Counted from the first letter of the stretch, positions 22,006-59,902 are shown. The stretch is 62,426 nucleotides of DNA from Phyllobacteriaceae bacterium (GCA_031423755.1 JANPGC010000174.1:1-62426); one strand, 5' to 3'. The notes: generated from the sequence alone by a model not told the origin. Made by a program: numbers and translations.

Positions 22006-22052
22006 ATGCATGCCGCACTTTCCGCGCTTGCAGCAGCTTCCGGCAGGTCTGG

Positions 22053-23127: not shown

Positions 23128-23174
23128 TGCTGTCCGTCACATTCGTGAAATGCGACAAGATCAGGAAACGGACT

Positions 23175-35112: not shown

Positions 35113-35200
35113 GGACAGCGGCTTTCCCTTCAAGTGGAAACTGATGAGGCCGCAAATCCAGTCGCGCCTATGGACGAGGGTTTCCCAGCTCAATCCGATT

Positions 35201-37719: not shown

Positions 37720-37726
37720 TCTGGCC

Positions 37727-38527
37727 TCAAACAAATGTGCATGACACGGAGCCGAACGGACCGAAGTCTGCTTCGACAAGACTGCCGGACGGCGCTTCGA
37801 CGGGACGGATAAACGAGCCTGACAGCACGACATCCCCGGCGTTGATCGAACCGCCGTAGACTTCAAGACGGTTTGCCAGCCACGCGATGCCCATGGCCGG
37901 ATCGTTCAGCACCCCGGCGCCAAGGCCGGTTTCCTCGACCTCGCCATTGCGCGATACGATTGCGCCCACCCAGCGCAAATCCATTGCGCGTGGGTCGTGC
38001 TTCTGGCGGCCAAGCACGATGCCGGCATTGGCGGCATTGTCGGAAATGGTGTCGAAGATGGTGCGGGCTTTCTTGGTTTCCGGGTCCGTGCGCACAATGC
38101 GCGTATCAAGAATTTCGAGAGACGGCGCGACGTAATCCGTGGCTGCCAGCACCTGCTCTGTCGTACAATCCGGACCTGACAGGTCTGATTTCATCACGAA
38201 CGCAATTTCGGCTTCGATGCGCGGCTGGATGAAGCGGTGCTTCGGGATCGCCTCGCCATCCTGGAAGAACATGTCATCAAGCAAAACGCCGGAATCCGGG
38301 ATGTCAATGTTGAGCGCATATTGCATCGCCTTCGATGTCAGTCCGATTTTCCAGCCTTTGACGATGCGGCCACGCGCAATCTTGCGGCGCACCCATGCTG
38401 CCTGAATGGCATAAGCGTCGTCCATGGTGATTGACGGATGGGCAAGGCTGAGCAGGCCAATTTGCTTGCGGCAGCGTTCAGCGCTGTCCAGCGAGGCCGC
38501 CGCAACTTCGATGTCTTGGGGCGTCAT
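37727..38527 (-). CDS. hpaH: 2-oxo-hept-4-ene-1,7-dioate hydratase
   Basis: 266 aa. Strong resemblance to E. coli HpaH ([32 protein letters not shown]; [12 protein letters not shown]; GVLN.PA.G.AWLAN). Confidence 0.88.
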
Positions 38528-40820: not shown

Positions 40821-40831
40821 TTTAAATGTCC

Positions 40832-41812: not shown

Positions 41813-41815
41813 TGT

Positions 41816-43333: not shown

Positions 43334-43344
43334 GGTTGCTCCCG

Positions 43345-43731
43345 TCAGGATCCGCGCAGCCGCGCGTGGATGGCATTTTTCTTCCAGCTCAATGCCGGAT
43401 CGTTTTCGACAAGGTCAACTGAAAGAGCAAAGTGAGGCGTCGCAAACAGCGGCGCGAGCATTTGCGAAAGTGTCGAATGCAATGTCTCTCCGACGCGCTT
43501 CTTTTCCTCAAGCGTACGCCCTGCCCCGATGCGAACAAGCACGGCGAGAAACGCATTCTCCCGCGCTTCGTCTGCAATCGCATAATGATCGCAACGAAGC
43601 GCCCGCACACGCACGGCGCCAAGCTCGAACAGGCCGGTGTCCATCATTGTGGCCTTGGCCGCCTTGCACAGCTCGGCGATATCAACCGTGGCCTCCAGAT
43701 TGGCTGAATATTCCATCGTCAGATGCGGCAA
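43345..43731 (-). CDS. hpaF: 5-carboxymethyl-2-hydroxymuconate isomerase (tautomerase superfamily)
   Basis: 128 aa. TTG start giving (M)PHLTMEYSANL, colinear with E. coli HpcD MPHFIVECSDNI. GGGGAGAG RBS. Confidence 0.85.
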   Translation of the reverse strand: MPHLTMEYSANLEATVDIAELCKAAKATMMDTGLFELGAVRVRALRCDHYAIADEARENAFLAVLVRIGAGRTLEEKKRVGETLHSTLSQMLAPLFATPHFALSVDLVENDPALSWKKNAIHARLRGS

Positions 43732-44321: not shown

Positions 44322-45539
44322 TTAGCTTGTCAGGAACGCCTTCAGGCTGAATCCGGACTGTCCGGCCTGTTCACGGGTCAGCACCTTGCCGCTGTCCAGA
44401 AGCTTGCGTGACATGGCAAAAGTAACCGGATCATTGAAACAATCCGCAGCAAGGAACGCTCCGTCACGGAAATAAAGATGCGCCCGCGTCGAGCCGGTGC
44501 CGGATTGAACCAGAATATCATCATAGCCCGTATTCAAGCCGGCAATTTGCAGCTTCATGTCAAACTGGTCCGACCAGAACCACGGTGTGGAGCGGTAGAC
44601 GAGTTCTTGTCCGGTAATATTTGCGGCGGCAACGGCACCTTGGTCATTGGCATTTTGGACCGACTCAAGGCGGATGTGACCGCCTTCATAGGGAAAGCTG
44701 GCGCAGTCACCGACAGCATAGACGCAAGGGTCGGAGGTGCGCATGCAGCTATCAACGACAACACCGTTGCCGATTGAAAGCCCGGCGTTCTCGGCGACGT
44801 GTGTGTTGGGCGAAATGCCGATGCCCACCACCACAAAGTCCGCAGGAACTGTCTCGCCGCCCTCAAGTTCAACGCCGACCGCTGATCCGTTGCTGCCGGC
44901 AATCCGGTCAATATGCACACCCTCGCGAATTGTCACGCCGTGGCCCTGATGCAGGGCGCGCAAATGGTCCGAGGTTTGGCGGGCAGCCACACGTTTGACG
45001 ATGCGGTCGGCCGCTTCCAACACCGTCACCTGCACGCCTTTCTTGGCCGCCTCTGATGCCGCCTCAAGCCCGATATAGCCGCCACCGATAACCACCAGAC
45101 GTCTGCCTTCGACCATCTCGTGCTTGAGCCGATCCGCATCGCCCAGATCGCGCATGGTATGAACGCCCTTGAGCGCACCGCCCCTGTCCGCCGGAAATTG
45201 GCGGGGCGACGCGCCGGTTGCCAGCACGAGTGCGTCGTAGGACAGGTTCTGGCCGGACGAGAGCGAGACTGTCTGGGCCGCGCGGTCAATCGTTGTGGCA
45301 GTCATACCGCGCAGCAAATTGATACTGTTTTCGGCAAACCAGCTTGCAGGTCGCAAAGCGATAGTCTCAAGCGCCGCCTTGCCGGACAGGTAAGCCTTGG
45401 AGAGAACCGGGCGCTGGTATGGATGGGCATCCTCTGCGCTGACGACGGTGATTTGGGCCAATGGATCTAGCGCGCGCAACCTGGCGGCAGCGGCAATGCC
45501 GCCGTGGCTTGCTCCAACAATGACCGTATGGCGCGCCAT
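44322..45539 (-). CDS. NAD(P)H-dependent ferredoxin reductase (putidaredoxin-reductase type FAD oxidoreductase)
   Basis: 405 aa from ATG 45539 (MARHTVIVGASHGG). Two Rossmann GxGxxG motifs (VIGGGYIGLE). Located immediately downstream of the ferredoxin gene. Confidence 0.85.
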   Translation of the reverse strand: MARHTVIVGASHGGIAAAARLRALDPLAQITVVSAEDAHPYQRPVLSKAYLSGKAALETIALRPASWFAENSINLLRGMTATTIDRAAQTVSLSSGQNLSYDALVLATGASPRQFPADRGGALKGVHTMRDLGDADRLKHEMVEGRRLVVIGGGYIGLEAASEAAKKGVQVTVLEAADRIVKRVAARQTSDHLRALHQGHGVTIREGVHIDRIAGSNGSAVGVELEGGETVPADFVVVGIGISPNTHVAENAGLSIGNGVVVDSCMRTSDPCVYAVGDCASFPYEGGHIRLESVQNANDQGAVAAANITGQELVYRSTPWFWSDQFDMKLQIAGLNTGYDDILVQSGTGSTRAHLYFRDGAFLAADCFNDPVTFAMSRKLLDSGKVLTREQAGQSGFSLKAFLTS

Positions 45540-45543
45540 CAAA

Positions 45544-45864
45544 TCAGCCTTGAGGAACGATGAGTACGAGGCCATCCAGCGCCGGAGAGACGATGACCTG
45601 GCAGCTCAAGCGGCTGAACTCCGTCTTCGGGGCTTCCGTGATTTCAAGCATCGCATCCTCAATGTCGCCTGGCTTTCCTGCGCGGTCGGTCCAGTCTTCA
45701 TCGACATAGACATGACACGTTGCGCAAGAAAGGCACCCGCCGCATTCGCCGACAACGCCGGCGACATTGTTGGCCACTGCGGCGTTCATCAGGTTCATTC
45801 CGTCAGCAACTTCGGCGCTGATTATCGAACCGTTCGCCAGGTTCCAGGTGATCTTGGCCATCAT
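45544..45864 (-). CDS. [2Fe-2S] ferredoxin, adrenodoxin/putidaredoxin type
   Basis: 106 aa. Cys ligand pattern ECGGCLSCATCH...LSCQ. Confidence 0.85.
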   Translation of the reverse strand: MMAKITWNLANGSIISAEVADGMNLMNAAVANNVAGVVGECGGCLSCATCHVYVDEDWTDRAGKPGDIEDAMLEITEAPKTEFSRLSCQVIVSPALDGLVLIVPQG

Positions 45865-45880
45865 GTTTGTTCCGAATCTG

Positions 45881-47155
45881 TCAGATGTAATGGATGTAGA
45901 AGTCGCGCAGCGCGTCGCCTTCCAGCTGGGATGTCTTTTCGATTTCGTCGCGCTTGATGAAGACATGATTTTCACAAAGCAGCCGACCGACGGCCTCCAT
46001 CAGGGCGCCATCTGCCTCCAGCGCATCGAGTGCGCCGCCCAGCGTTTCAGTAACGCCATCAACGGCTTCGTGTTCGGTCAGGCAATTGGCTGTTTCCATC
46101 GGTGGCAGCGGATATTTGTTGACGAAACCCAGCCGCGCCGCCTGCAGCGTCGTCGCCACCAGCGTATAGGGATTGGACGCGCCATCGCCCATCCGGTGCT
46201 CGATGCGCGCCTTGGGACCGCGTTCGGCGGAGATCCGCGTGGTGACGCCGCGATGGTCACCGCCCCAGTTGCGCCAGTAGCCGGACAGCGATGATGGTTT
46301 GAGGCGCTGGTAGGAGTTGACCGTCGGCGCAACCAGCGCTGCCATCGCCTGATGATGGTGCATGAGCCCGGCAATGCAGCCCTGCGCCACCGGGCTCAGA
46401 CTATCCGGTTCGCCAACCGCATTGTTGCCGTGCTCGTCCTTGAATGAGAAGTTCACGTGCAGCCCGCTGCCACCTTTGGACAGGATGGGTTTGGGCATGA
46501 ATGTCAGCACAATTCCGAATTCCAACGCCGTTTCCCGTGCCAATTGGCGGAACAGGAAAATGTCATCCACGGCCTTCAGGGCACGGTCATAGGTCAGCGT
46601 AAACTCGTATTGCGGCGTGTCAAACTCGGAGGTCATGGAGTCGATGGCAAAGCCGAGCGCCGTGGCCCGCTCCCATATCTCGTCCATGAACCCGCGCGGA
46701 TCAGCAAATGGGCCGGTGGCGTAGACATAGCCTTTGGGCGTCTCATATGGCACGAGCTTGCCGTCATCGTCGTGCTGGAAGGCGAAGCACTCCAGCTCCA
46801 GCCCGATCATCGGGTCAAATCCAATCGTATTCCAATCGCTGATCGCCTTCTTCAGCGCCTGACGCCCGCACGCGCCGAACGGCTGGCCTTCTTCATAGAG
46901 ATCACCGACGACGATCCTGGTGTTGTCTTCCCAGCCGTCGCGCACATCCGCGCCAAGGTAGCGCACTTCCAAGTCTGGCAGGCCTTCCAGAACCTTGGAG
47001 CCCGGCGACGGGATGAGATCCCTGTCGTAGGTCACTCCAAAGGTGCTCTGGCAAACGCGCGTGCTGTTCGTGCCAATTTTTGAGGCGGGCAGATACTTTC
47101 CGCGCGCCAGATTCAAATGGTCACAGAACAAGACCCGCAATCGTTCGTTGGACAT
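45881..47155 (-). CDS. Glutamine-synthetase-family gamma-glutamyl-amine ligase (PuuA/IpuC-like)
   Basis: 424 aa from ATG 47155 (GGGAGGGG RBS; the ORF-track start is GTG). GS catalytic-domain motifs (GLELECF, KP...GSGLHVNFS, NSYQRL, RIEHR). Confidence 0.8.
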   Translation of the reverse strand: MSNERLRVLFCDHLNLARGKYLPASKIGTNSTRVCQSTFGVTYDRDLIPSPGSKVLEGLPDLEVRYLGADVRDGWEDNTRIVVGDLYEEGQPFGACGRQALKKAISDWNTIGFDPMIGLELECFAFQHDDDGKLVPYETPKGYVYATGPFADPRGFMDEIWERATALGFAIDSMTSEFDTPQYEFTLTYDRALKAVDDIFLFRQLARETALEFGIVLTFMPKPILSKGGSGLHVNFSFKDEHGNNAVGEPDSLSPVAQGCIAGLMHHHQAMAALVAPTVNSYQRLKPSSLSGYWRNWGGDHRGVTTRISAERGPKARIEHRMGDGASNPYTLVATTLQAARLGFVNKYPLPPMETANCLTEHEAVDGVTETLGGALDALEADGALMEAVGRLLCENHVFIKRDEIEKTSQLEGDALRDFYIHYI

Positions 47156-47177
47156 CGCTACCCCTCCCACAGTCTAT

Positions 47178-48440
47178 TCAATTCAGCTCAATCTTGACCG
47201 GCATGCTCTTGATGCCGCCGACAAAATTGGAGCGCAGATAATGCTGTTCGCCGGTCTGCTTGATCGATTTGACCCGCTTGGCGAATTCCTGAAACAACAG
47301 CCGGATTTCAAGTCGTGCCAGCCACATGCCGAGGCACACATGCGCCCCGCCCTGCCCGAAAGCCACGTGCCGGTTTGGCGAGCGGCGGAAATCCACCTTG
47401 AATGGATTGTCGAACACCGCTTCATCTCGGTTCCCGGACACAAACCACAAAAGCACCTTGTCGCCCTCGCGCAGTGTTTTGCCATGCAGCTCGTGATCGC
47501 GCGTCACCGTGCGGCGGAAATACATGGCAGGCGACGCCCAGCGGATCACTTCGTCCGGCATGGTGTCCCAGATGGTTTCATCATTGCCCTGAAGGTCTTC
47601 CAGCAATCCCGGCTGGTTGGCGAGCGCCTGCAATCCGGCTGCGATCGAATAGCGCGTCGTGTCGTTGCCCGCCGCCACCAGTAGGCAGAAGAAATTGCGG
47701 AACTCTTCCTCGGAAATCACATTGCCTAGGGAATCCGGCTGCATGATCAGATTGAGCACGCCTGTCGTGTCGCCCTTGCGCCGCTTGTCTGCCATCAGCT
47801 TCTTTGCGTAGTCGAAAAGGTCCGCGCCAGCCGGCGAGCGGAACGGCATCAGCCGGTAGGCATCCGTGTCAGCCTTGTCGAGCACATGGTCGGTGAAGTC
47901 GGAATCCGTGTTTGCGATGAGCGCGTCGCCCTTTTCGACCAGCCAGTTCAAATCCTCGTCCGGCGTGCCCATGATCTGCCCAAGCATCCGCATCGGCAAT
48001 TGCCGCGCCAGACTTTTGACCGCATCGAATTCGCCAAGCGGTAGAACGTCGTCGAGTATCTCGTCGCATAGCTGGCGGATTTGCGTTTCAAACAGCGCGA
48101 CGACCGGCTTGGAAAATGCCTTGGCAACCAGAATGCGCATGCGGGTATGGTCTGGCGGATCGGTTTCCTGAAAGGTCCGCCGCGCCAGATATTCCTCGTA
48201 GGTCTGGTCTTCCATGCGAATGCCGTGCGCCGAGGAATAGAGCGCATTGTTGCGGTTGCACTCGTGGATGTCTTCGTTGCGCGTGATCGACCAGAAGCCC
48301 TGTCCCGCCGGATAGTCGCACCAGGCAACCGGTTCCTCGCTTCTCAGCCGTGCAAACGTGTTGTGCGGCGCACCGGACACGAACGCATCGTGGCTCGAGA
48401 GATCGGCGTGGCCGTCGTCATTGGGAACCCAGACCGTCAC
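47178..48440 (-). CDS. Cytochrome P450 monooxygenase
   Basis: Heme-binding loop FGQGGAHVCLG, ExxR motif and I-helix AGNDTT. GTG 48440 is preferred (GGAGAA RBS) over the ORF-track TTG at 48455. Confidence 0.85.
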   Translation of the reverse strand: MTVWVPNDDGHADLSSHDAFVSGAPHNTFARLRSEEPVAWCDYPAGQGFWSITRNEDIHECNRNNALYSSAHGIRMEDQTYEEYLARRTFQETDPPDHTRMRILVAKAFSKPVVALFETQIRQLCDEILDDVLPLGEFDAVKSLARQLPMRMLGQIMGTPDEDLNWLVEKGDALIANTDSDFTDHVLDKADTDAYRLMPFRSPAGADLFDYAKKLMADKRRKGDTTGVLNLIMQPDSLGNVISEEEFRNFFCLLVAAGNDTTRYSIAAGLQALANQPGLLEDLQGNDETIWDTMPDEVIRWASPAMYFRRTVTRDHELHGKTLREGDKVLLWFVSGNRDEAVFDNPFKVDFRRSPNRHVAFGQGGAHVCLGMWLARLEIRLLFQEFAKRVKSIKQTGEQHYLRSNFVGGIKSMPVKIELN

Positions 48441-48552
48441 GAACTTTCTCCTCAAAAACTTCGTTGCAAAATGTAGAACACATGTTAAATATATTTACAA
48501 GCCTCATTTGCACACATATAAAATATTCCTGCATGCACAATTGGAGAAAGTC

Positions 48553-49269
48553 ATGAAACGACGCATTGGAATTCTGCTGACCTGCGTCGACGATTCGGAA
48601 TTCGCCAAGCGCTTCCCGGACGACGGCGAAAAGTTCCGCCGTCTGTTGCAGCCGCTGCGGCCGGAATGGAAATTTGTGACGGTGCCGGTCAAGGATGGTG
48701 TGTTTCCTGAACAAGCCAGTGATTTTGACGGCTATATTATCACCGGCAGTCCGGTTTCGGTGAATGCAAATTCCAAATGGATCAAGCAGCTGTTTGGCTT
48801 CATCCGCGAGCTGGACGCCAAGAAAGTTCCGACGTTCGGCGCCTGCTTCGGACATCAGGCTATTGCCATGGCGCTGGGTGGCACAGTCGAAAAATCAGAT
48901 AAGGGTTGGGGACTGGGCACGGCCAAAACCGAGTTCGACAACTTCGCCCCTTGGATGGAGCCGCAACAGAAGAAGATGACGCTGTTCGCGGCGCATGAGG
49001 ACCAAGTGACGACGCTGCCGAAAGACGCCGTGGTTTTGGGTGGCAGCGAATTCTGTCCCTATGGGTCCTACCGCATCGGTTCGCACATTTTTACCACTGA
49101 ATATCACCCTGAGATGACGCAGGAGTTTGTATCGGCGCTTTTGGATGAGCTTGAATCCGGGCTTGACGTTGAGACGATTGCCGCAAGTCGCCGATCCCTG
49201 AGCGCGCCGGCGGAAGGTCCGGCATTTGCACAGTGGATCGTTAATTTTCTCGATAAATCAGCTTGTTAG
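48553..49269 (+). CDS. Class I glutamine amidotransferase-like hydrolase (candidate gamma-glutamyl-amide hydrolase, PuuD/IpuF role)
   Basis: 238 aa from ATG 48553 (GGAGAAAG RBS). Nucleophile GACFGHQ and His-Glu pair YHPE. Confidence 0.75.
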   Translation: MKRRIGILLTCVDDSEFAKRFPDDGEKFRRLLQPLRPEWKFVTVPVKDGVFPEQASDFDGYIITGSPVSVNANSKWIKQLFGFIRELDAKKVPTFGACFGHQAIAMALGGTVEKSDKGWGLGTAKTEFDNFAPWMEPQQKKMTLFAAHEDQVTTLPKDAVVLGGSEFCPYGSYRIGSHIFTTEYHPEMTQEFVSALLDELESGLDVETIAASRRSLSAPAEGPAFAQWIVNFLDKSAC

Positions 49270-49979: not shown

Positions 49980-51464
49980 TCAGAGCTGTATCCACGCCGT
50001 TTTCAGGTCGGAAAACTTGTCCAGCGCATGCAGCGACTTGTCATGGCCATTGCCGGATTGACCGACGCCGCCGAGCGGCACCGTGTTGTCCGACCCGCCG
50101 TAGGTGTTCACATGCACCACCCCTGCGCGGATGTTGCGCACCATGCGGTGTGCCTTGGAAAGGTTTGACGTCCAAACCGCTGAAGCCAATCCATAGACTG
50201 TAGAATTGGCAATCCGCACCGCATCCGCCTCGTCCTTGAACTTCATCACGCCCAGCACCGGTCCGAACACTTCCTCTTGAGCCAGATGCATCTTCGGCTC
50301 AATGCCGGAAAAGACGGTCGGCGACATGTAGAAACCACCGGTCTCCTCAAGAATGCGCTTGCCGCCGGTCTGCAAAAATCCGACTTCCACTTCGGCGCGA
50401 TGGACGAATTCCAGATCTTTTTCCAACTGGTCCAGACTGGTCACCGCACCGGCTTCGGTGCTGAGATCAAGCGGGTCGCCAACTTTGATCTTCGATGCGA
50501 TGGAAGAAACCCTGGCCACAAACTCGTCATGGATGCTCTCTTCCACCAACAGCCGCGATCCTGCCACACACACCTGCCCGGAATTGCGGAAGATGCCATA
50601 GGCGGAAATCTTCGCGGCTTGGTCCAAGTCGGGCGCGTCGGCGAAGACAACGTTTGGAGACTTGCCGCCAAGTTCGAGATAGCAGCGCTTCATGTTTGAG
50701 CGGGCGGAATATTCCATCAGCTTGCGGCCGACAAAGCCGGACCCCGTGAACGCCATCACGTCGACATCCATGTGGAGGCCGAGCGCCTCACCGCAGACCG
50801 AGCCTTTGCCCGTGACGACATTCAATACTCCGTCCGGAAGCCCTGCTTCTGAACACAGTTCTGTCAAACGCAACAATGACAGCGAAGCGGCTTCGGCAGG
50901 TTTCAGCACCACAGAATTTCCAGCCGCAAGCGCTGGTGCAATTTTCCAGGAGCCGATCATCATCGGAAAATTCCACGGCACAATTGCCGCGACGACGCCA
51001 ACAGGTTCGCGGTGGATCAGGCCGAGTATATTGGGCGCAGTCGGGGCGATTTCTCCATAAACCTTGTCGATGGCTTCAGCATAATAGCGGAACGTGCCCG
51101 CTGCACTGCCCGGCTCTGCCTTCAGCGCCATGGAAATTTCCGTACCATTGTCGCGTACGCCAAGCACCGCGAGTTCAACCGCATGCTTCTCGATCAGGTC
51201 GGCGATGCGGTGCATCACCCTTTTGCGTTCGGCAGGCGCCGCGCGCGACCAGACGCCGCTGTCGAATGCCTTGCGTGCGGCAGCAACTGCACGATCCGCG
51301 TCCGCCGCTGATGCGCGGGCGATACTGGTGAACACCTTGCCATCAATAGGCGAAATGACATCCAGTCTGCCTCCGTCTTCAGCCTTGGACCAAGCGCCGT
51401 CGATGAACAGGTCGCGCCCGGATACGGGCAGCACGCGCAGGCGATCGATTTCGGATTGACTCAT
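49980..51464 (-). CDS. NAD-dependent aldehyde dehydrogenase, PuuC-like (gamma-glutamyl-aminoaldehyde type)
   Basis: 494 aa from ATG 51464 (GAGGA RBS). Motifs ELGGKSP, catalytic Cys GQVCVAGSR, and the RYYAEAIDKVYGE segment resembling E. coli PuuC. Confidence 0.8.
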   Translation of the reverse strand: MSQSEIDRLRVLPVSGRDLFIDGAWSKAEDGGRLDVISPIDGKVFTSIARASAADADRAVAAARKAFDSGVWSRAAPAERKRVMHRIADLIEKHAVELAVLGVRDNGTEISMALKAEPGSAAGTFRYYAEAIDKVYGEIAPTAPNILGLIHREPVGVVAAIVPWNFPMMIGSWKIAPALAAGNSVVLKPAEAASLSLLRLTELCSEAGLPDGVLNVVTGKGSVCGEALGLHMDVDVMAFTGSGFVGRKLMEYSARSNMKRCYLELGGKSPNVVFADAPDLDQAAKISAYGIFRNSGQVCVAGSRLLVEESIHDEFVARVSSIASKIKVGDPLDLSTEAGAVTSLDQLEKDLEFVHRAEVEVGFLQTGGKRILEETGGFYMSPTVFSGIEPKMHLAQEEVFGPVLGVMKFKDEADAVRIANSTVYGLASAVWTSNLSKAHRMVRNIRAGVVHVNTYGGSDNTVPLGGVGQSGNGHDKSLHALDKFSDLKTAWIQL

Positions 51465-51525
51465 TTTGTCCTCGTTTGAAATGGCAAGGGCGGCAGTCTC
51501 CCGCCGCCCTCGATAGCTCAATGTA

Positions 51526-52965
51526 TCAAGTGTTGCGGCCGAGTTCGCTGAACTTGACCGGGTTGCGTCTTTCTAGGCTGCCTGCTGACAGGTAGCCGAT
51601 GATTGCCGCGACAAGCACCAGCGACGGCAGCGCCACGCCGAGCGTGCCAGACGCGCCGGTGAGATCGCCAAACTTCGCGAAGATGTAGACAAACAGCAAT
51701 GCGAGGATGGCACCGGTGATCATCGGCAATATCTTGGTGGCAAGCGCCGTTTCGCCCAAGTCGCTCTTGCCGAAGAACGACACCACGGCAAAGGACGTGA
51801 TGCCCATCAGGCCGAGAATACCCAGCGTGCCGAGCTGCGTCAGCCAAGTGAACAGCTGCAGCACCGGATCCATGCCCATGATGGCAAAGAAGCCGACGAC
51901 AACAACCGCAAGCACGGTCTGGATGATGGAGCCGACATGCGGGCTTTGGTAAGTGTCATGAGTCACGCCGACAGATGCCGGAAGAATGCCCTCGCGACCA
52001 GCCACATATTTGTAGCGCGCCACACCATTGTGGAAGGCCAGAACGCCGGCAAAGAGACTCGATACGAACAGGAAGCCCATGATCGTTGGAACCGGTCCGC
52101 CGACGTAACGACCGGCAAGTTCAAACAGGAACGTCGTCGGATCAGCCAGCGACTGCAATGTCGGAACCAGCTTGTCCACACCCGCGCCGTTGGCCATCAG
52201 CCAAGCGGTGACCATGTAGAACACGCCGATCAGAATTACCGAGAGATAAGTCGCCTTCGGCACCGTTGTGTGGGGATCGCGCGCTTCTTCGGAATAGATG
52301 GTTGTCGCTTCAAAGCCGATAAAGGCGGCGAAGCAGAACAGTATGCCGATGGCGGGTGAGCCGCTCATGATCTGGCTGATGCTGAATGGTGCCATTGAAA
52401 GGCCGCTGTCGCCGCCTTTGACGAAAATCGCCACGTCGACAATCAAAACGATGACATATTCAAGCAATACCAGCGCCATCAATATCTTGGCCGAAAGGTC
52501 CACCTGCCGATAACCCAGAACGGCGCAGAACGCGATGCCGACGAAGCTCCACACCCACCAGGGCAGATCGATTCCGATGGAGGCAAATGTCCCTGCCGAC
52601 GCTGCGCCCAAAAGGCCGAGAATGCCGATCTGCATCGCGTTGTAGCTGAGGATGGCAATCAGCGCGGCGGCACCGCCGATTTTGCCGCCAAGGCCGCGCG
52701 CTGCAAATGCGTAGAAGCCGCCCGCGCTTGATATATGCCTTGCCATCGCAACGTAGCCGACTGCGAAGGCGATCAGGATGATTGTTGTGAGCAGAAATGA
52801 TCCGGCAATGCCGGCACCGTTTCCGAGCAGCATGCTGATTGGCACACCGCCCGCCACTGCGGTCAGAGGCGCTGCCGCCGATATGACCAGAAATGTGACA
52901 GCGCCGACCCCGAGGCTGTTTTTGCGCAGCTGGTTTGCCCCCGCCGCATTTGTTGAATTTGCCAT
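51526..52965 (-). CDS. APC-superfamily amino acid/amine permease
   Basis: 479 aa from ATG 52965 (GGAGGG RBS; the ORF-track start is TTG). About 12 TM helices with an APC-type N-terminus. Confidence 0.85.
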   Translation of the reverse strand: MANSTNAAGANQLRKNSLGVGAVTFLVISAAAPLTAVAGGVPISMLLGNGAGIAGSFLLTTIILIAFAVGYVAMARHISSAGGFYAFAARGLGGKIGGAAALIAILSYNAMQIGILGLLGAASAGTFASIGIDLPWWVWSFVGIAFCAVLGYRQVDLSAKILMALVLLEYVIVLIVDVAIFVKGGDSGLSMAPFSISQIMSGSPAIGILFCFAAFIGFEATTIYSEEARDPHTTVPKATYLSVILIGVFYMVTAWLMANGAGVDKLVPTLQSLADPTTFLFELAGRYVGGPVPTIMGFLFVSSLFAGVLAFHNGVARYKYVAGREGILPASVGVTHDTYQSPHVGSIIQTVLAVVVVGFFAIMGMDPVLQLFTWLTQLGTLGILGLMGITSFAVVSFFGKSDLGETALATKILPMITGAILALLFVYIFAKFGDLTGASGTLGVALPSLVLVAAIIGYLSAGSLERRNPVKFSELGRNT

Positions 52966-53104
52966 TGTACCCTCCAATTTGCAATTCGCCCCAACAGATC
53001 CCCTGTTTCATTATTTGAACCATCGGTGCAAATAGAGACTTGCAAAATTCCAAATGTGATGTCAAGTTATTTCACATGTTAAGCGACTAGGGAGTTCGAC
53101 CTTG

Positions 53105-53878
53105 ATGGGCACTGTCAGCAAAGCGCTTGGATTGATTGAGCTTTTGCGTGGAAGCGGCCATCCGCTCGGCCTGACCGAACTTGCCCGCCTTGCCGGGTTC
53201 GACAAGGCGACAACGCGCCGCCTGCTGTTGGAACTTGCCGCAAACGGCTATGTCGAGCAGGACGGAGAGTCGCGCGGCTATGCGCTTGGTCCTGCGTTGC
53301 AAATGCTTGGGCGCGCCCGGGAAAACCGATTTCCGCTGAACCGCGCCATTCAGCCAGCCGTCCGCTCCCTGTCTGAACTCACCGGCGAAACTGTCCATGC
53401 TACCGAATATTGCGCCGGGTCTCTCGCTTCAATCTTCACGGTCGAGTCGGGCAAGGCGAACCGGGTGATCCTCGAGCATGGCCAGAAGCTTCCCCTTCAC
53501 GCCACAGCATCGGGCTACGCGTTTCTTGCCGCTTCTTCGGACGCATTCGTTGAAAGCGTTTGCCGCAGACAGTTTGAGGTTTACACGCCAACCACGCCAA
53601 CGGACAGCAATGCATTGCTGGACATCGTGCGCGCAACGCGCGAGCGCGGCTACTCCATCTCCAACCAATCAATGGAAGAAGGCGTTTCGAGTGTCGCTGC
53701 AGCCATTCGCGGCGTTGGCGGCAAGCCTGTCGGAACAATGGCAATCGCCATGCCGGCGAGCCGTGTCACGCCTGATGTGATCCGTGAGTATGGCGAGCTG
53801 GTGCGCCAAAGCGCGGCCCAAGTCTCTGCGCGCCTCTTTGGCAAATCAACCGTCCAACCCTTCCGCAAGGCTTCTTGA
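53105..53878 (+). CDS. IclR-family transcriptional regulator
   Basis: 257 aa. N-terminal wHTH (VSKALGLIELLRGSGHPLGLTELARLAGFDKATTRRLLLEL) and a C-terminal IclR effector domain. Confidence 0.85.
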   Translation: MGTVSKALGLIELLRGSGHPLGLTELARLAGFDKATTRRLLLELAANGYVEQDGESRGYALGPALQMLGRARENRFPLNRAIQPAVRSLSELTGETVHATEYCAGSLASIFTVESGKANRVILEHGQKLPLHATASGYAFLAASSDAFVESVCRRQFEVYTPTTPTDSNALLDIVRATRERGYSISNQSMEEGVSSVAAAIRGVGGKPVGTMAIAMPASRVTPDVIREYGELVRQSAAQVSARLFGKSTVQPFRKAS

Positions 53879-53881
53879 CAC

Positions 53882-55132
53882 ATGGCTGCTTCCACACCCC
53901 GCATTCTGCTGATCGGCACTGGTGATACCAAGTCCGATGAGCTCAATTTCATGAAGTCCTGCATTGAAGACGCAGGTGGCATTGCTGTGATGATGGACGT
54001 TTCCGTCCTCGGCAACCCGCAATATGTGCCGGACTATTCCAAGCATGACATCGCCGCTGCAGCGGGCACGACCATTGAAGGCATCATCAATTCCGGTGAC
54101 GAAAACTCGGCCATGGCGTTGATGGCATCCGGCGCATCAAAACTTGCGCGCAAGCTTTATGATGACGGCAAGATGGATGGCACGATCATTCTTGGCGGTT
54201 CCATGGGTACGGATCTGGCGCTGGATGTCGCCGCCGCGCTGCCGCTCGGGGTGCCGAAATTTGTGGTGTCGACCATCTCCTTCTCGCACCTCATCCCGCC
54301 TGACCGCATCTCGACGGACTTGATGATGATCCTTTGGGCGGGTGGGCTTTATGGCCTCAACAGCATCTGCAAATCCGTGCTCAGCCAAGCCTGCGGCGCG
54401 GTCGTTGGGGCGGCGAAAGCCAGTGTCCGGCCGCAGACCGAACGTCCCATCATCGGCATGACCTCGCTCGGCAAGAGCTGCCTGAAATACATGGTGCCGA
54501 TTAAACCGGCGCTGGAAGCGCGCGGCTATGAAGTGGCGGTCTTTCATACAACAGGCATGGGCGGGCGGGCATTTGAATCCGTTGCCTCACAGAACGGGTT
54601 CGCCGCAGTGATGGATTTTTCGTTGCAGGAAATCGTCAACCACGAGAACGGCGTGCTTGCCACTTCGTCCGGCTGGGACCGGTTGGAGAACGCAGCAAAA
54701 CTTGGCATCCCGCAGATCGTCGCGCCGGGCGCGGTCGATATGGTGGATATCCAATCCTGGGCACCGCTGCCACAGCACTTTGCCGACCGGCCATACCATG
54801 CGCACAACCGGCTGATCGGCTCGATCACCACCGACCCTGAAGGACGCCGCCAGACGGCGCGCACCATTGGCCACAAGCTGGAACGGGCATGGGGTCCGGT
54901 CGCGTTCATCCTGCCTGCAGGTGGCATTGAAGAATGGGATCAGGAGGGCGAGCCGCTGCATGATCCCGAAGGTTTGCGCGCTTTCAGCGAAGCGATGCGG
55001 CTGGCCATCAAACCGCCCGTCGAGTTCCACGAAATTCCGGACCATATCAACAGCCCGGCGTTTGCAACCAAGGCGCTTGAGGTCTTTGACGCGTGGGTCG
55101 CGGATGGCATCATACCGGCAGGCGTCAAATGA
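53882..55132 (+). CDS. UPF0261 / Tm-1-like ATP-binding protein (function unknown)
   Basis: 416 aa. The N-terminus RILLIGTGDTKSDELNFMKSCIEDAGG and the length match the UPF0261 family as I remember it. Confidence 0.65.
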   Translation: MAASTPRILLIGTGDTKSDELNFMKSCIEDAGGIAVMMDVSVLGNPQYVPDYSKHDIAAAAGTTIEGIINSGDENSAMALMASGASKLARKLYDDGKMDGTIILGGSMGTDLALDVAAALPLGVPKFVVSTISFSHLIPPDRISTDLMMILWAGGLYGLNSICKSVLSQACGAVVGAAKASVRPQTERPIIGMTSLGKSCLKYMVPIKPALEARGYEVAVFHTTGMGGRAFESVASQNGFAAVMDFSLQEIVNHENGVLATSSGWDRLENAAKLGIPQIVAPGAVDMVDIQSWAPLPQHFADRPYHAHNRLIGSITTDPEGRRQTARTIGHKLERAWGPVAFILPAGGIEEWDQEGEPLHDPEGLRAFSEAMRLAIKPPVEFHEIPDHINSPAFATKALEVFDAWVADGIIPAGVK

Positions 55133-55803
55133 CTTTGCAGAAAGCGCTGATCCTCGACTTCGGCGGCGTCGTCACGCGCACATTGTTTGAGACACATGAC
55201 CTCACCGAGAGGGCGCTTGGCCTTGATCCCGGTACGCTGACTTGGCGCGGTCCATTTGCGCCGGAGACTGATCCGCTCTGGGTGTCGATGCAAAACCGGG
55301 AGATCACCGAGCGTGACTATTGGATGACCCGCACGCGCGAAGTCGGAAGGCTTGTGGGTGAGGAATGGACATCGATGATGCAGTTCGTGCAAAGCGCGCG
55401 TGGGGCGGAACCTGCTCTGGTGCTGCGAACGGAGGCACGCGAAGCGATTCTGGCAACCAAGGCGTCGGGGCTGAAACTTGCGATATTGTCCAACGAACTC
55501 GACCTATTTTACGGCGTCGAGTTTCGCAAGCGCTTCCCGTTGATCGAACTGTTCGACGTGATCATCGACGCCACATACACGCAAATTCTCAAGCCTGATC
55601 CACAAGCCTACCAGCTTTGTCTCGATGCTTTGAACCTGAAAGCATCCGACTGTGTGTTTGTGGATGACCAGATGAAGAATGTGGAGGGCGCGCTCGCCCT
55701 AGGCATTCCCACCGTCCATTTTGATGTGACAGATCCCGGCAAGAGCTACGCTGAAGCGTTGGCTTTGCTGGGTTTATATGACAAGGAAAAAGCCCATGCG
55801 TGA
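55129..55803 (+). CDS. HAD-superfamily hydrolase (subfamily IA-like phosphatase)
   Basis: 224 aa from ATG 55129 (ATGA overlap). Motif I LILDFGGVV, motif III/IV K...FVDD. Confidence 0.8.
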   Translation: MTLQKALILDFGGVVTRTLFETHDLTERALGLDPGTLTWRGPFAPETDPLWVSMQNREITERDYWMTRTREVGRLVGEEWTSMMQFVQSARGAEPALVLRTEAREAILATKASGLKLAILSNELDLFYGVEFRKRFPLIELFDVIIDATYTQILKPDPQAYQLCLDALNLKASDCVFVDDQMKNVEGALALGIPTVHFDVTDPGKSYAEALALLGLYDKEKAHA

Positions 55804-57148
55804 AGCCAATTTTCTGACTGAAAACAACGCCAAACATCTCTGGCACCCGATGGCGCACGCAGGCGAAATGCGCAGCAATCCACCGAAAATCATCAAGGCC
55901 GCATCCGGTGTCGAGATTACCGACTTGAACGGCAAGACTGTGCTCGATGCTGTAGGCGGCCTTTGGAATGTCAACCTTGGCTATTCTTGCGAGCCGGTGA
56001 AGAAGGCGATCCGCGACCAACTGGATCTGCTGCCGTATTACTCATCGTTCCGAGGAACCACAAATCCGCCCATGATCGAATTGTCCTGGGAGCTGTCCGA
56101 ATTCTTCAAGCCTGATGGCCTTACCCGCGCGTTCTTCACATCCGGTGGCTCGGACTCAGTGGAGAGCGCATTGCGCCTTGCCCGCCAGTATCACAAGCTC
56201 AAGGGGCAGCCCGAGCGCACCAAGTTCATTGCCTTGAAAAAGGGCTATCACGGCACCCATTTCGGTGGCGCGTCCGTCAATGGCAACGCCAATTTCCGCC
56301 GCGCCTACGAGCCGCTGTTGCCCGGCGTGTTTCATCTGCCTGCGCCATGGGATTACCGCAACCCGTTCAACACCACGGACGGCGCTGAGATCGCCACGCG
56401 GATTGCCGCGTTGTTTGAAGAGGAGGTCGCCTTCCAGGGTGCCGACACAATTGCCGCGTTCATCATGGAGCCAGTGCTTGGAGCGGGCGGCGTCATCGTT
56501 CCGCATGAAACCTTCATGTCGCTGATGCGGAAAATTTGTGACAAGCACGGAATTTTGCTGATCGCCGATGAAGTCATCACAGCTTTCGGCCGCGCTGGCG
56601 CATGGTCAGGCTCGCGACTTTGGGGCGTGCAGCCTGACATGATGTGCACGGCAAAAGCGGTCACCAACGGCTACTATCCATTCGGCGCAGTGATGATCCA
56701 CGAGAAGCTGACGGAAGTTTTCGAAACTTCGAAATCCCCGCTTGCGTCCATCGGTCACGGTTACACCTACTCAGGTCACCCGGTCGGCGCTGCGGCGGCA
56801 ATCGCCACTCTGGCAGAAACGAAACGCCTCAATGTTGCGTCAAATGCCGAGATGCGTGGGGTAGAATTGATGGCTGGATTGCAAGGCCTCTTTGCCAAGC
56901 ATGAACTTGTCGGAAACGCCCGGGGCATTGGCTTGATGTGTGCGTTGGAACTGGTCTCGAACCGCGACACGAAATCGGCACCTGCCAAAGAGGCCGTTCA
57001 GAAAGTGCAGGATGTGGCCTATGATGCCGGTGTCATGGTGCGCACATCCGGTCCCAACATCATCATCTCGCCGCCGCTGATCATCACAGCAAACGATGTG
57101 CACAAAATCGTCTCCGCTCTCGATGCGGGGTTGGCCGCAGCATCATGA
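55796..57148 (+). CDS. Class-III (omega) aminotransferase
   Basis: 450 aa from ATG 55796 (AAGGAAAAAG RBS; overlaps the HAD stop). Motifs HLWHP, GSDSVE and LIADEV, with the PLP-Lys region CTAKAVTNGY. Confidence 0.85.
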   Translation: MREANFLTENNAKHLWHPMAHAGEMRSNPPKIIKAASGVEITDLNGKTVLDAVGGLWNVNLGYSCEPVKKAIRDQLDLLPYYSSFRGTTNPPMIELSWELSEFFKPDGLTRAFFTSGGSDSVESALRLARQYHKLKGQPERTKFIALKKGYHGTHFGGASVNGNANFRRAYEPLLPGVFHLPAPWDYRNPFNTTDGAEIATRIAALFEEEVAFQGADTIAAFIMEPVLGAGGVIVPHETFMSLMRKICDKHGILLIADEVITAFGRAGAWSGSRLWGVQPDMMCTAKAVTNGYYPFGAVMIHEKLTEVFETSKSPLASIGHGYTYSGHPVGAAAAIATLAETKRLNVASNAEMRGVELMAGLQGLFAKHELVGNARGIGLMCALELVSNRDTKSAPAKEAVQKVQDVAYDAGVMVRTSGPNIIISPPLIITANDVHKIVSALDAGLAAAS

Positions 57149-58434
57149 TATCGGCGCAAACCAGAGCTTTGATGGATCGCCGCGACCGGCTGCTCGGACC
57201 GGGTGCACGGTTGTTTTACGATGAGCCGGTGCAGCTTGTTTCCGGCAAAGGCGTTCGTGTGAAAGATGCTGCCGGGCGCGAATATCTTGATTGCTACAAC
57301 AATGTTCCGCACGTCGGCCATTGCCATCCGCGTGTCGTAGAGGCGATCTGCCGCCAAGCCTCCATTATCAATACGCACACGCGCTATCTGCACGAGGGCA
57401 TTCTTGACTATGTCGAGCGGCTGACGGCGACATTTGGCGACAACATCACCTCGGCAATCATGGTCTGCACCGGCAGCGAGGCCAATGATGTCGCGCTTCG
57501 TATGGCGCAGGCCGTCACTGGCAAGACGGGGATCATCGCTTCTGATCACACCTACCACGGCAACACCACGGCCGTTTCCCAACTCTCAACCACCATGCCG
57601 CCCATCGGCGGCCATGGCGGACACGTGCGCCATGTCGCAGCGCCGGACAGTTACCGCCCGCTGGGTGGAACCGGCGGTGAAGCGCATGCGGCGGCGTTTG
57701 CGGCGGAAGTGGAGAAGGCCTGCCAGTCGCTCATCGAAAGCGGTCACGGTGTCTCCGGCATGATCCTTTGCCCGGCCTTCGTCAACGAGGGCTTTCCCGA
57801 TCTTCATGCCGGCTTCCTTGATGAGACTGTTGCAGTGGTGCGCAAGCATGGCGGCGTTATAATCGCCGACGAAGTGCAGCCAGGCTTTGGGCGCATCGGG
57901 TCGCACTTCTGGGGGCATCAAAAAATGGGCTTTGCGCCCGATATTGTCACCATGGGCAAACCGATGGGCAATGGCCACCCGGTTGCCGCCGTTGCCACCA
58001 GCCTCGATATCCTGACTTCATTCCGCAAAGCATTCCGCTATTTCAACACGTTTGGCGGCAATCCGGTTTCTTGCGCCGCAGCAAATGCGGTGCTCGATGT
58101 TCTGGAAGGCGAGCGGCTTCAAGCCAATGCGGCAAATGTTGGCGCATATGTCCGCGATGGACTGAAGCGGCTTGCCGACAAGCATGTCATCATTGGCGAC
58201 GTGCGCGGTTCAGGACTGGCGATTGGTGCCGAGCTGGTGATCGACCGCACGACGAGAGAGCCGGCACGAGAGATTGCAGCACGTGTCATAAACCTCTTGC
58301 GCGCGCGCGGTGTGCTCGCGGGGGCGAATGGCATCTCATACAATGTGCTCAAGATCCGCCCACCGATGCCATTCTCCAGGACTGATGGTGAGGAGCTGTT
58401 GTCTGCCTTGGATGACAGTCTGTCAGCGCTATGA
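57145..58434 (+). CDS. Class-III aminotransferase-fold enzyme of the AGXT2L / O-phospho-amino-alcohol phospho-lyase type
   Basis: 429 aa. Motifs DCYNNVPHVGHCHPRVV and DIVTMGKPMGNGHPVAAV resemble ethanolamine-phosphate / phosphohydroxylysine phospho-lyases. ATGA-coupled to the neighbouring genes. Confidence 0.7.
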   Translation: MISAQTRALMDRRDRLLGPGARLFYDEPVQLVSGKGVRVKDAAGREYLDCYNNVPHVGHCHPRVVEAICRQASIINTHTRYLHEGILDYVERLTATFGDNITSAIMVCTGSEANDVALRMAQAVTGKTGIIASDHTYHGNTTAVSQLSTTMPPIGGHGGHVRHVAAPDSYRPLGGTGGEAHAAAFAAEVEKACQSLIESGHGVSGMILCPAFVNEGFPDLHAGFLDETVAVVRKHGGVIIADEVQPGFGRIGSHFWGHQKMGFAPDIVTMGKPMGNGHPVAAVATSLDILTSFRKAFRYFNTFGGNPVSCAAANAVLDVLEGERLQANAANVGAYVRDGLKRLADKHVIIGDVRGSGLAIGAELVIDRTTREPAREIAARVINLLRARGVLAGANGISYNVLKIRPPMPFSRTDGEELLSALDDSLSAL

Positions 58435-59444
58435 TGGACCGTGCCAAGATGGCTGAAGAAGTGCTCGAAACGGTCACCAAAACGGCGCGCAAAGCGCTCG
58501 AATCCTGGTCGGACATTATCGGCGAGCCGCAACTCGTGATGCACCGGGAGAACTCGGTGTTTAGGGTCGAGACCAAGGCGGGGCCCGCCGCATTGCGCAT
58601 TCACCGGGCGGGCTATCATTCGCTGAATGCAATTCAATCCGAGCTCGACTGGATGGCGCATCTGGCAGCAAATGGTCTTGCAGTCCCTGCGCCGATCCCG
58701 ACATCAGATGGAGAATTGCTCGTCGAAATCAGCAATGGTTCCGGAAAGCGCTACGTCGCCGATCTGTTGACTTGGCTGGATGGCGCACCTCTCGGCAAGT
58801 CCGGTGTTCCACTCGCCGGGTCGGTTGATGAGCAGACAGAACTTTTCCGCGCGCTCGGCAAATCCATGGCGCAACTTCACCAAATCTCTGACAATTGGCG
58901 CGCCCCGCCGCACTTTGATCGCCATGCATGGGACCGGAATGGGTTAATTGGCGATACGCCGTTCTGGGGTCAATTCTGGACGATCTCGGATTGCTCTAAT
59001 GAGGAATTGACAACACTCACGGCAGTACGGCGACAGCTGGGGAATGATCTGGACCAATATTTTGCTGATGGCGCGGACTATGGACTCATTCATGCTGATC
59101 TCGTGCGGGAGAATGTGCTTGTGCATCAGGGTCAAATCCGGATGATTGACTTTGACGATGCAGGTTTCGGTTTCCGGATGTTCGACATCGCCACCGCGCT
59201 GATCAAGAACCGCAGCGAGCCGCACTATGAGGCGCTGAAGTTCGCTCTGCTTTCAGCCTATGGGTCGCAGCGCCAGATATCCCAACGTGATCTGGATACG
59301 CTTCCAATGTTCCTGCTGCTGCGAGCGCTTACCTATTTGGGGTGGGCCGAGTCGAGGAAGCACGAGCCCGACATGACGGCCCGCCGCCAGCGACACAAGA
59401 GCGAAGCGCTTGAGCTCGCCCGCACCTATCTTGCGCGGGAGTGA
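58431..59444 (+). CDS. APH-fold small-molecule kinase (homoserine-kinase-II / hydroxylysine-kinase-like)
   Basis: 337 aa. Brenner motif IHADLVRENVL and metal-binding IDFDD. Confidence 0.8.
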   Translation: MMDRAKMAEEVLETVTKTARKALESWSDIIGEPQLVMHRENSVFRVETKAGPAALRIHRAGYHSLNAIQSELDWMAHLAANGLAVPAPIPTSDGELLVEISNGSGKRYVADLLTWLDGAPLGKSGVPLAGSVDEQTELFRALGKSMAQLHQISDNWRAPPHFDRHAWDRNGLIGDTPFWGQFWTISDCSNEELTTLTAVRRQLGNDLDQYFADGADYGLIHADLVRENVLVHQGQIRMIDFDDAGFGFRMFDIATALIKNRSEPHYEALKFALLSAYGSQRQISQRDLDTLPMFLLLRALTYLGWAESRKHEPDMTARRQRHKSEALELARTYLARE

Positions 59445-59902
59445 CGACGGACATCCTCCGGCATGCGGATGGTTTCGATCCGCTCCAGCGAAGATAGCAG
59501 TTGCGCAGTCGCCCTGTTCCCAAGCGCCGCGACCAGATCGGCCTCGAACTGCCGCGCTGACTGCGAGAGTTTGGCAAATTGTACACGGCCTGTTTTCGTC
59601 AGTTGCAGCCACTCAACCCGCCGGTCTGCATCGTCAACTTTGCGCGCCAGCCACTTGCGCTCTTCCAGTGCGAACACCGCACGGCTGACCTTGGTCTTGT
59701 GCATATTGGCCTGCGCGCCAATGTCTGTCGCCGTCGTGCGGGCGAGCTGCGCGAGGATGGCCAGCACCCGCCATTCGGGACGGCTGAGCCCCTCCTGCTG
59801 TTTGTAAATTGCCGCGAACGCCAAGCTCACCTTTTCCGCGGCGTTGTGCAGCCTGTAGGGCAGAAAATCACGCAAGATCAATTCGGACTCTGCGGCGCAC
59901 AT
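59426..59902 (-). CDS. MarR-family transcriptional regulator (divergent from hmgA)
   Basis: 158 aa from ATG 59902. wHTH ([46 protein letters not shown]). Confidence 0.8.

Follow-up and report, generated by a model that had tools for sequence, protein, structure and literature searches.

An operon joining a conserved UPF0261-HAD-transaminase core to an optional kinase/phospho-lyase cassette, with a putative role in the catabolism of phenolic arylethylamines

The operon described here spans positions 53105 to 59444 of a 62,426-nt stretch of DNA from a Phyllobacteriaceae bacterium (GCA_031423755.1 JANPGC010000174.1:1-62426), the whole of which is referred to below as the window. It consists of six plus-strand open reading frames (ORFs); of their five junctions, three are ATGA overlaps, one is an 8-nt overlap and one a 3-nt gap. 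An ORF and junction check bore out the coordinates that a preliminary description of this DNA had given for the six-gene string and its tight junctions. Each ORF has a strong family match, with Pfam E-values of 1e-30 (IclR_C), 7e-45 and 2e-62 (N-terminal and C-terminal UPF0261), 1e-16 (HAD), 1e-92 and 2e-67 (Aminotran_3 in the transaminase and the lyase, respectively) and 6e-31 (APH, kinase), and the six are therefore real genes rather than chance ORFs:

53105-53878, plus strand: IclR-family transcriptional regulator, first gene of the operon (HTH_IclR and IclR_C; below every NCBIfam equivalog cut-off)
53882-55132, plus strand: UPF0261 / Tm-1-like ATP-binding protein of the NF002676 group, proposed phenolic-hydroxyl kinase for arylethylamines (Pfam, NCBIfam, PDB 9MPY match)
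55129-55803, plus strand: HAD-IA hydrolase with the non-canonical motif I DFGGV, proposed aryl-phosphate phosphatase (Pfam Hydrolase, HAD_2)
55796-57148, plus strand: class-III omega-amine transaminase, proposed to convert arylethylamines into arylacetaldehydes (NF005683; PDB 5LH9, 6S54)
57145-58434, plus strand: ETNPPL-type O-phospho-amino-alcohol phospho-lyase dependent on pyridoxal phosphate (PLP), first gene of the accessory cassette (5G4I and 6TOR matches)
58431-59444, plus strand: APH-fold amino-alcohol kinase, second gene of the accessory cassette (Pfam APH; PDB 6EF6)

The IclR ORF runs from 53105 (alternative TTG start at 53102) to a TGA stop ending at 53878, and 3 nt separate this stop from the UPF0261 ATG at 53882. 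The UPF0261 stop codon (55130-55132) overlaps the HAD ATG at 55129 in an ATGA, the HAD stop (55801-55803) overlaps by 8 nt the transaminase gene starting with an ATG at 55796 (alternative ATG at 55778), and two further ATGA overlaps connect the transaminase to the lyase (57145-57148) and the lyase to the kinase (58431-58434). On its 5' side the operon is bounded by a divergent APC permease gene, across a 127-nt intergenic region, and on its 3' side by a convergent MarR-like ORF followed by hmgA. The gene order recurs in many genomes, the nearest being a Phyllobacteriaceae metagenome-assembled genome (MAG) with 96% protein identity.

Two collections of related loci were used to define which genes belong together. 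Retrieval via the UPF0261 protein yielded 73 loci, onto which all window proteins were mapped; core counts refer to the 52 UPF0261-anchored loci that have 6 kb or more of sequence on each side. Retrieval via the lyase alone yielded 57 loci, in which genes within about 10 kb were counted. Around UPF0261, the transaminase was present in 49 of the 52 loci, the neighbouring aldehyde dehydrogenase (ALDH) in 47, the HAD protein in 43, hpa (4-hydroxyphenylacetate / homoprotocatechuate) genes in 34 and the APC permease in 27; the lyase and kinase were present in just five. Moreover, the UPF0261 and HAD genes are adjacent and translationally coupled in most loci. This survey corrects the preliminary description in that the operon is not centred on the kinase/lyase pair. 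The UPF0261-HAD-transaminase core is widespread and undescribed, it is tied to the aromatic hpa genes, and about 100 or more of the sampled loci, from rhizobia, Phyllobacteriaceae and marine Rhodobacterales, carry the gene set.

The kinase/lyase pair is an optional 3' cassette on this conserved core, flanked by the stop codon of the transaminase gene on one side and the convergent MarR-like gene on the other. In two close relatives (L010 and L011), homology to the window ends at 57138 and resumes at 59594, so that window positions 57139-59593 correspond to 6210-6387 of L010 and 6456-6823 of L011, with less than 400 nt in between. Because the alignment stops and restarts at these points, the lyase and kinase genes form a cassette at the operon's 3' end that is either present or cleanly absent. 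Among the 57 lyase-anchored loci, an APH kinase gene adjoins the lyase in 55, UPF0261 is found in 29, the transaminase and an aldehyde dehydrogenase orthologue in 25 each, and the HAD protein in 19. Gene orders around the lyase vary: lyase, kinase and UPF0261 are consecutive in some loci, and many Rhodobacterales carry an ALDH-lyase-kinase-UPF0261 operon, with the aldehyde dehydrogenase directly upstream of the lyase and the transaminase divergent. Given that UPF0261 lies near the lyase in 29 of the 57 loci and in such varied orders, the cassette is probably tied functionally to the core. An example of the Rhodobacterales arrangement, with its divergent transaminase, is the megaplasmid of the marine model organism Ruegeria pomeroyi DSS-3 (L158 6780-13208; SPO_RS21615 to SPO_RS21635, the last being UPF0261), where the kinase bears the RefSeq label 'homoserine kinase'. 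Other cultured carriers are Shinella sp. HZN7, whose UPF0261 protein is shn_RS28140, and Sinorhizobium fredii NGR234. In Mesorhizobium sp. CU3, UPF0261, HAD, transaminase and hpa genes lie on one contig (L025) and an unlinked lyase-kinase pair on another (L110); since core and pair are present in one genome, 'stand-alone' pairs may still serve the same pathway.

Identification of the fifth and sixth genes as an amino-alcohol kinase / O-phospho-amino-alcohol phospho-lyase pair, already put forward in the preliminary description, is well supported by comparison with solved structures. The lyase matched the phospholyase 5G4I with 359 bits (4e-106) and human ETNPPL (6TOR) with 351 bits (1e-103), being about 43% identical to both, and its PLP-lysine motif GKPMGNGHP aligns residue for residue with the two of them. 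Its next-best solved relative scored 180 bits (1e-51), which places any transaminase, racemase or decarboxylase at or below that value; this second aminotransferase-like protein thus sides with the phospho-lyases and not with the true transaminases. For the kinase, the best solved relative was 6EF6 (1e-40), presumably the (S)-1-amino-2-propanol kinase of M. smegmatis; amicoumacin kinase (2e-16) and homoserine kinase (3e-12) were more distant. The catalytic HxDxxxxN motif (H221, D223, N228) and the Mg-binding DFD motif (D240, D242) are invariant in 83 homologues, and the motifs quoted earlier were located as described, DIVTMGKPMGNGHPVAAV in the fifth protein and HADLVRENVL and IDFDD in the sixth. 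Furthermore, the NCBIfam models PRK06148 and PRK06149 describe fusions of about 1000 amino acids whose N-terminal part matches the window kinase and whose C-terminal part matches the lyase. Assignment of the kinase as a homoserine kinase (58 bits against a cut-off of 271) or as an aminoglycoside resistance APH(3') enzyme (22 bits against a cut-off of 205) was rejected, the 6EF6 match being far better. A literature search returned no reports tying phospholyase to amino alcohols or octopamine to phospho-lyase.

The UPF0261 family is very widespread, with members in Archaea, Bacteria and plants, where it includes Tm-1. The description of this family as having no assigned function has been outdated since 2025, when the phenol kinase activity of MarK from Novosphingobium aromaticivorans was reported (PMC12624787). 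MarK works on its own, as a homodimer, and uses ATP to phosphorylate the phenolic hydroxyl group of acetovanillone and similar compounds; the lysine of its ATP motif is decisive (E16K), and its gene is the first of an operon in which a phosphatase is the final enzyme (PMC12624787). The absence of a TIM-barrel partner from the window, considered as a possible difficulty, was dismissed, since MarK is active without one and a UPF0261 protein therefore needs none (PMC12624787). The window protein matched the MarK structure 9MPY with an E-value of 2.5e-46. It belongs, however, to NF002676 (650 bits against a cut-off of 556), a group still named 'hypothetical protein' in NCBIfam, whereas MarK best matches NF002674.

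Residues were mapped by a sequence-based alignment of 70 cluster orthologues with MarK. The ATP motif D15-T16-K17 (MarK D14-T15-K16) is present in 69 of the 70, the remaining one having a gap, and the phenol-oxygen ligands G197 (MarK G195) and H222 (MarK H219), as well as the pi-stacking H308 (MarK H304), are invariant wherever the residue is present. The ketone ligand H348 of MarK is replaced by W352 and the hydrophobic I285 by D289 in all 70 orthologues, and the pocket-wall F283 is M287 in the window protein. The gain of an aspartate in place of isoleucine, together with the loss of the ketone-binding histidine, points to a cationic rather than a carbonyl substrate. We thus infer that the window UPF0261 protein phosphorylates a phenol other than the substrates of MarK, probably a cationic one, and is not a MarK orthologue.

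The HAD protein passes the cut-offs of Pfam Hydrolase, HAD_2 and TIGR01509, and its motifs are consistent with a C1-cap HAD-IA enzyme; its solved relatives are remote (1e-8 or weaker). The nucleophilic aspartate and motifs II to IV (LSNE, LKPD, FVDDQ) are conserved in 64 orthologues. Motif I reads L-D-F-G-G-V (residues 9-14), the Asp+2 general acid/base being replaced by glycine in at least 95% of these orthologues. Of the earlier designation as a HAD phosphatase, therefore, family membership and motifs II to IV stood, and the general acid/base expected of a phosphatase did not. An aryl phosphate offers a good leaving group, for which reason the enzyme may dispense with Asp+2, and we propose it as a ring-phosphate phosphatase. 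The fourth protein proved to be the conventional omega-transaminase that it had been taken for, scoring 737 bits against the NF005683 cut-off of 575, with the omega-transaminases 5LH9 (3e-122) and 6S54 (4e-120) as best PDB matches.

Upstream of the operon, the order of genes is hpa cluster, MarR regulator, Ipu-like module, GntR regulator, aldehyde dehydrogenase and permease. The units concerned, and two conserved elements of the intergenic region, are the following:

36916-43731, minus strand: hpaI, hpaH, hpaG, a PLP-dependent decarboxylase, hpaD, hpaE and hpaF, proposed downstream ring-cleavage genes (Pfam, NCBIfam)
44322-49269, both strands: Ipu-like module of ferredoxin reductase, [2Fe-2S] ferredoxin, glutamine synthetase (GS)-like ligase and P450 (minus) and a GATase-type hydrolase (plus) (Pfam)
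49980-51521, minus strand: PuuC/StyD-like aldehyde dehydrogenase, proposed arylacetaldehyde dehydrogenase (Pfam Aldedh, NCBIfam)
51526-52977, minus strand: APC-family amino-acid/amine permease, divergent from the operon, proposed to take up the amine (Pfam AA_permease_2)
53012-53034, no strand assigned: imperfect palindrome TATTTGAACC-N3-GGTGCAAATA, candidate operator (inverted repeat, conservation)
53036-53086, plus strand: promoter-like block (GACTTGCAAA ... TGTCAAGTTATTTCACATGTTAAG) that includes the palindrome ATGTGA-N12-TCACAT (conservation, palindrome scan)

HpaD, HpaE and HpaH score above NCBIfam equivalog cut-offs, and hpaF denotes an HpaF-like ORF. In Mesorhizobium and Rhizobium loci, hpaBC adjoins the core; downstream of the operon in the window lie hmgA and a fumarylacetoacetase-family gene. 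The PLP-dependent (group II) decarboxylase gene (39396-40820, minus strand) sits between hpaD and hpaG, inside the hpa cluster, and has the same placement in relatives L009, L012, L014 and L018 and in some Rhodobacterales; its product could supply the amine from L-DOPA or tyrosine. A biosynthetic role for the operon was rejected, as the permease, the IclR, GntR and MarR regulators and complete ring-cleavage genes surround it. Within the Ipu-like module, a small [2Fe-2S] ferredoxin ORF lies at about 45544-45861 (minus strand), between the ferredoxin reductase and the GS-like ligase. Similarity of the module to the Ipu system is at the family level, no NCBIfam equivalog cut-off being reached; its P450 system might act as the hydroxylase of a gamma-glutamylated arylethylamine. 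Another P450, about 395 amino acids long, is encoded between the aldehyde dehydrogenase and permease genes of the 91% identical relative L004 (6399-7580) and of many Mesorhizobium and Rhizobium loci; in the window it is missing, the two flanking genes abutting at 51521-51526.

The palindrome at 53012-53034 and the promoter-like block are near-invariant in 12 related loci, where the proteins are 55-96% identical. TATTTGAACC-N3-GGTGCAAATA and TGTCAAGTTATTTCACATGTTAAG are kept across these 12 loci. The conserved elements at 53012-53086 are likely to be the operator and promoter of the divergent units, and the palindrome is possibly the operator of the IclR regulator. A sigma-70 consensus scan gave no call at the conserved block (53036-53086), and internal sites found in a consensus promoter/terminator scan were no commoner than in shuffled sequence.

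Aromatic, phenolic amines are assigned as substrates mainly because the association of the core with hpa genes recurs across bacterial orders and arrangements. On this basis we propose, giving it about an even chance of being right, that the operon processes the amines within a catabolic island that would feed phenolic arylethylamines and their beta-hydroxylated forms into the hpa pathway. The substrates would most likely be of the tyramine or dopamine type and of the octopamine or noradrenaline type, used by a soil or sediment bacterium. The divergent APC permease would import the amine, and the UPF0261 protein would phosphorylate its ring hydroxyl at the expense of ATP. A plain arylethylamine would then be converted into the arylacetaldehyde by the omega-transaminase; with a beta-hydroxylated amine, the APH-fold kinase would phosphorylate the benzylic hydroxyl, and the ETNPPL-type lyase would eliminate phosphate and ammonia to give the same kind of aldehyde. 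The neighbouring aldehyde dehydrogenase would yield the arylacetate, the HAD protein would take off the ring phosphate before or after that oxidation, and the hpa enzymes would cleave the ring.

In this scheme, the ring phosphate may serve as a transient protecting or trapping group that would keep the toxic aldehyde charged and inside the cell and would limit both Pictet-Spengler side reactions and the oxidation of catechols. Loss of phosphate from a p-hydroxybenzyl phosphate readily gives a quinone methide, which masking of the phenol would prevent. The complete 'protect, then cut' route, with ring masking by UPF0261, benzylic activation by the APH kinase, ETNPPL-type elimination and unmasking by the HAD protein, would employ two unrelated kinases; we put it forward tentatively and regard it, taken as a whole, as doubtful. 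Every substrate, the position that UPF0261 would phosphorylate, the action of the HAD protein as a phosphatase and the order of steps are read from sequence comparison rather than observed.

Several results weigh against the amine-catabolic interpretation and its phosphorylation steps. Tyramine needs just a transaminase and an aldehyde dehydrogenase, so that precedent does not explain a kinase/phosphatase pair, and none of the papers in the literature searched mentions phosphorylated tyramine or dopamine as a bacterial intermediate; nor did the search return anything useful on bacterial octopamine catabolism, or anything for presumed locus tags of R. pomeroyi. The UPF0261 protein belongs to a different group from MarK, which acts on keto- or aldehyde-substituted phenols and not on amines (PMC12624787). 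Lacking Asp+2, the HAD protein is not assured of a phosphatase role, and it is missing from nine of the 52 UPF0261 loci. The characterised enzymes nearest to the kinase and lyase take small aliphatic amino alcohols as substrates, and about half of the lyase/kinase pairs occur in unrelated contexts. A comparison of cluster-linked with stand-alone copies found no specificity-determining residues in the kinases; in the lyases, strict thresholds likewise gave none, and relaxed thresholds gave three weak ones. As no residues separate the groups, the substrate preference of the two enzymes is not inferable from sequence. Finally, no hpaBC hydroxylase genes were found in the window, and a search of sequencing runs detected the operon sequence in freshwater-sediment DNA metagenomes and in no RNA runs.

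Other explanations were also weighed. The operon might be a mosaic in which a cassette for ethanolamine or 1-amino-2-propanol was captured beside an unrelated aromatic-amine transaminase core, an explanation that we consider unlikely. It would suit the phosphoethanolamine lyases and the 6EF6 kinase (presumably the aminopropanol enzyme) being the best solved relatives, the lack of positions separating cluster-linked from stand-alone copies, and a cassette that is gained or lost as a unit and is also found in unrelated contexts. Yet UPF0261, aldehyde dehydrogenase and transaminase genes lie near the lyase in about half of the 57 independently sampled loci, in several orders, and a neighbour-joining tree spreads the cluster-linked lyases over several separate branches rather than one clade; repeated chance capture is not expected to produce a co-location that recurs so often and in differing gene orders. 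Alternatively, the aromatic-amine context may be right, but a cycle of ring phosphorylation and dephosphorylation of the amine may not be the task of the UPF0261 and HAD proteins, an explanation to which we give a rather small chance. UPF0261 may then phosphorylate a later intermediate, such as 4-hydroxyphenylacetaldehyde or an arylacetate, or the HAD protein may be a non-phosphatase hydrolase or a phosphotransferase. HAD superfamily members without Asp+2 include non-phosphatases, and the DFGGV motif and the nine loci that dispense with the protein are compatible with such a role. MarK itself phosphorylates phenolic aldehydes and ketones and not amines (PMC12624787), which would fit a later intermediate for UPF0261. 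Against this alternative stand the invariant Asp289 in place of a hydrophobic residue and the lost ketone-binding histidine, which point to a cation and not a carbonyl group, as well as the adjacency and translational coupling of the UPF0261 and HAD genes in most loci.

The preliminary description had suggested the operon as a downstream sink for an amino alcohol generated by the Ipu-type P450 step, which would leave the kinase and lyase to dispose of an aliphatic (alaninol-type) compound and the other genes as auxiliaries. A complete Ipu-like set (GS-like ligase, P450, ferredoxin, ferredoxin reductase and GATase hydrolase) does lie 4-9 kb upstream, small amino alcohols are the substrates of the nearest characterised relatives of both kinase and lyase, and in a Geminicoccus MAG (L096, 9001-16500) lyase and APH kinase genes adjoin GS-like, P450 and GATase genes without UPF0261 or transaminase. 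That locus is the one that fits the suggestion. The module accompanies the core in only four of the 52 loci and the lyase in two of the 57, two loci (L012 and L067) have it without the lyase, and in the window it is a separate, oppositely oriented unit past the GntR regulator gene; the conserved partners of the operon are instead UPF0261, transaminase, aldehyde dehydrogenase and the aromatic hpa genes. The Ipu-like module is thus best seen as an optional neighbour outside the operon, with a weak link to it, and disposal of its product strikes us as an improbable function for the cassette.

Other loci in the window were also recognized. A second aromatic catabolic cluster at 1355-16576 includes an intradiol dioxygenase (5402-6292), an FAD ring hydroxylase (6305-8059), a Fe-ADH family protein that is perhaps a maleylacetate reductase (12809-13876), a CoA transferase, a thiolase, a branched-chain-type ABC transporter and a LysR regulator. 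The region 17935-24215, with a PAS-rich HWE histidine kinase (17935-20601), a PhyR-type anti-anti-sigma response regulator (20704-21552) and a HisKA_2 kinase (23175-24215), has the typical layout of an alphaproteobacterial general stress response locus. A single ORF of 2866 amino acids at 26593-35193 (minus strand), with GH94 supersandwich and catalytic domains and a glucoamylase-like domain, resembles rhizobial cyclic beta-1,2-glucan synthases.

The catabolism of phenolic arylethylamines proposed for the operon would bear on several questions. UPF0261 has had a single demonstrated activity, known since 2025; from this cluster a second physiological role can be proposed and put to the test, in an orthologous group separate from that of MarK. 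It would be the first role suggested for the unnamed NF002676 branch, for which the 'protect, then cut' route, if true, would provide a physiological function. If true, that route would also extend phospho-lyase chemistry to arylethanolamines, giving an arylethanolamine-to-arylacetaldehyde conversion notable for biocatalysis, would possibly supply the missing genes for the orphan 'octopamine/synephrine dehydratase' activities, and would make a transient phosphate 'protecting group' on a phenol a notable strategy. The gene set could be a common means by which soil, rhizosphere and marine bacteria use tyramine, dopamine, octopamine and noradrenaline from plants, algae and animals. Should the amine hypothesis fail, the survey still shows the kinase/lyase pair to be a mobile two-gene cassette.

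Viewed against known systems, the operon appears to join two themes, MarK-type aromatic catabolism bracketed by phosphorylation and dephosphorylation and ETNPPL-type kinase/lyase pairs. The MarK / AcvF acetovanillone pathway of N. aromaticivorans, together with the AcvAB/HpeHI systems, likewise has a UPF0261 kinase opening an aromatic operon and a phosphatase closing the phosphorylated stretch (PMC12624787, 9MPY). The window protein keeps the D-T-K ATP motif, the phenol-oxygen histidine, the glycine and the pi-stacking histidine of MarK, and differs from it in its NF002676 rather than NF002674 membership and in the changes His348 to Trp and Ile285 to Asp. The window lacks a biotin carboxylase, no AcvCDEF-type carboxylase genes being found in it, and has instead a transaminase and a phospho-lyase between kinase and proposed phosphatase; its substrates would be amines. 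ETNPPL, the PHYKPL/hydroxylysine kinase pair, Arthrobacter A1RDF1 (5G4I) and the M. smegmatis pair share with the cassette the two folds, their adjacency or fusion and the catalytic motifs, whereas the window pair lies inside an aromatic-amine cluster with a second, unrelated kinase and its proposed substrate bears an aryl group on the carbinol carbon. The aminopropanol kinase of M. smegmatis reportedly works with a phospho-lyase partner, as hydroxylysine kinase is said to do with PHYKPL.

Classical tyramine and dopamine routes are represented by TynA-FeaB-HpaBC of E. coli and by the 3,4-dihydroxyphenylacetate catabolon of Pseudomonas putida U. They share with the proposed pathway the sequence from amine through arylacetaldehyde and arylacetate to homoprotocatechuate meta-cleavage, and hpa genes are adjacent in the window; in contrast to their amine oxidase, deamination in the window would be carried out by a cytoplasmic omega-transaminase or a phospho-lyase, and the ATP-dependent kinase and HAD steps have no counterpart in them. 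Ipu isopropylamine catabolism of Pseudomonas sp. KIE171 has the same architecture as the window module (GS-like ligase, P450 with ferredoxin and reductase, GATase hydrolase), at the level of protein families; that pathway oxidises alaninol and uses no kinase and lyase, and the module is optional at the loci studied here (4 of 52). Octopamine hydro-lyase (EC 4.2.1.87) and synephrine dehydratase (EC 4.2.1.88) activities have been described in Pseudomonas and Arthrobacter, and to our knowledge no gene has been assigned to them. Their net reaction, from a beta-hydroxylated arylethylamine to 4-hydroxyphenylacetaldehyde and ammonia or an amine, is the one proposed for the cassette; they were described as direct dehydratases, whereas the window route would be ATP-dependent and proceed via a phosphate ester.

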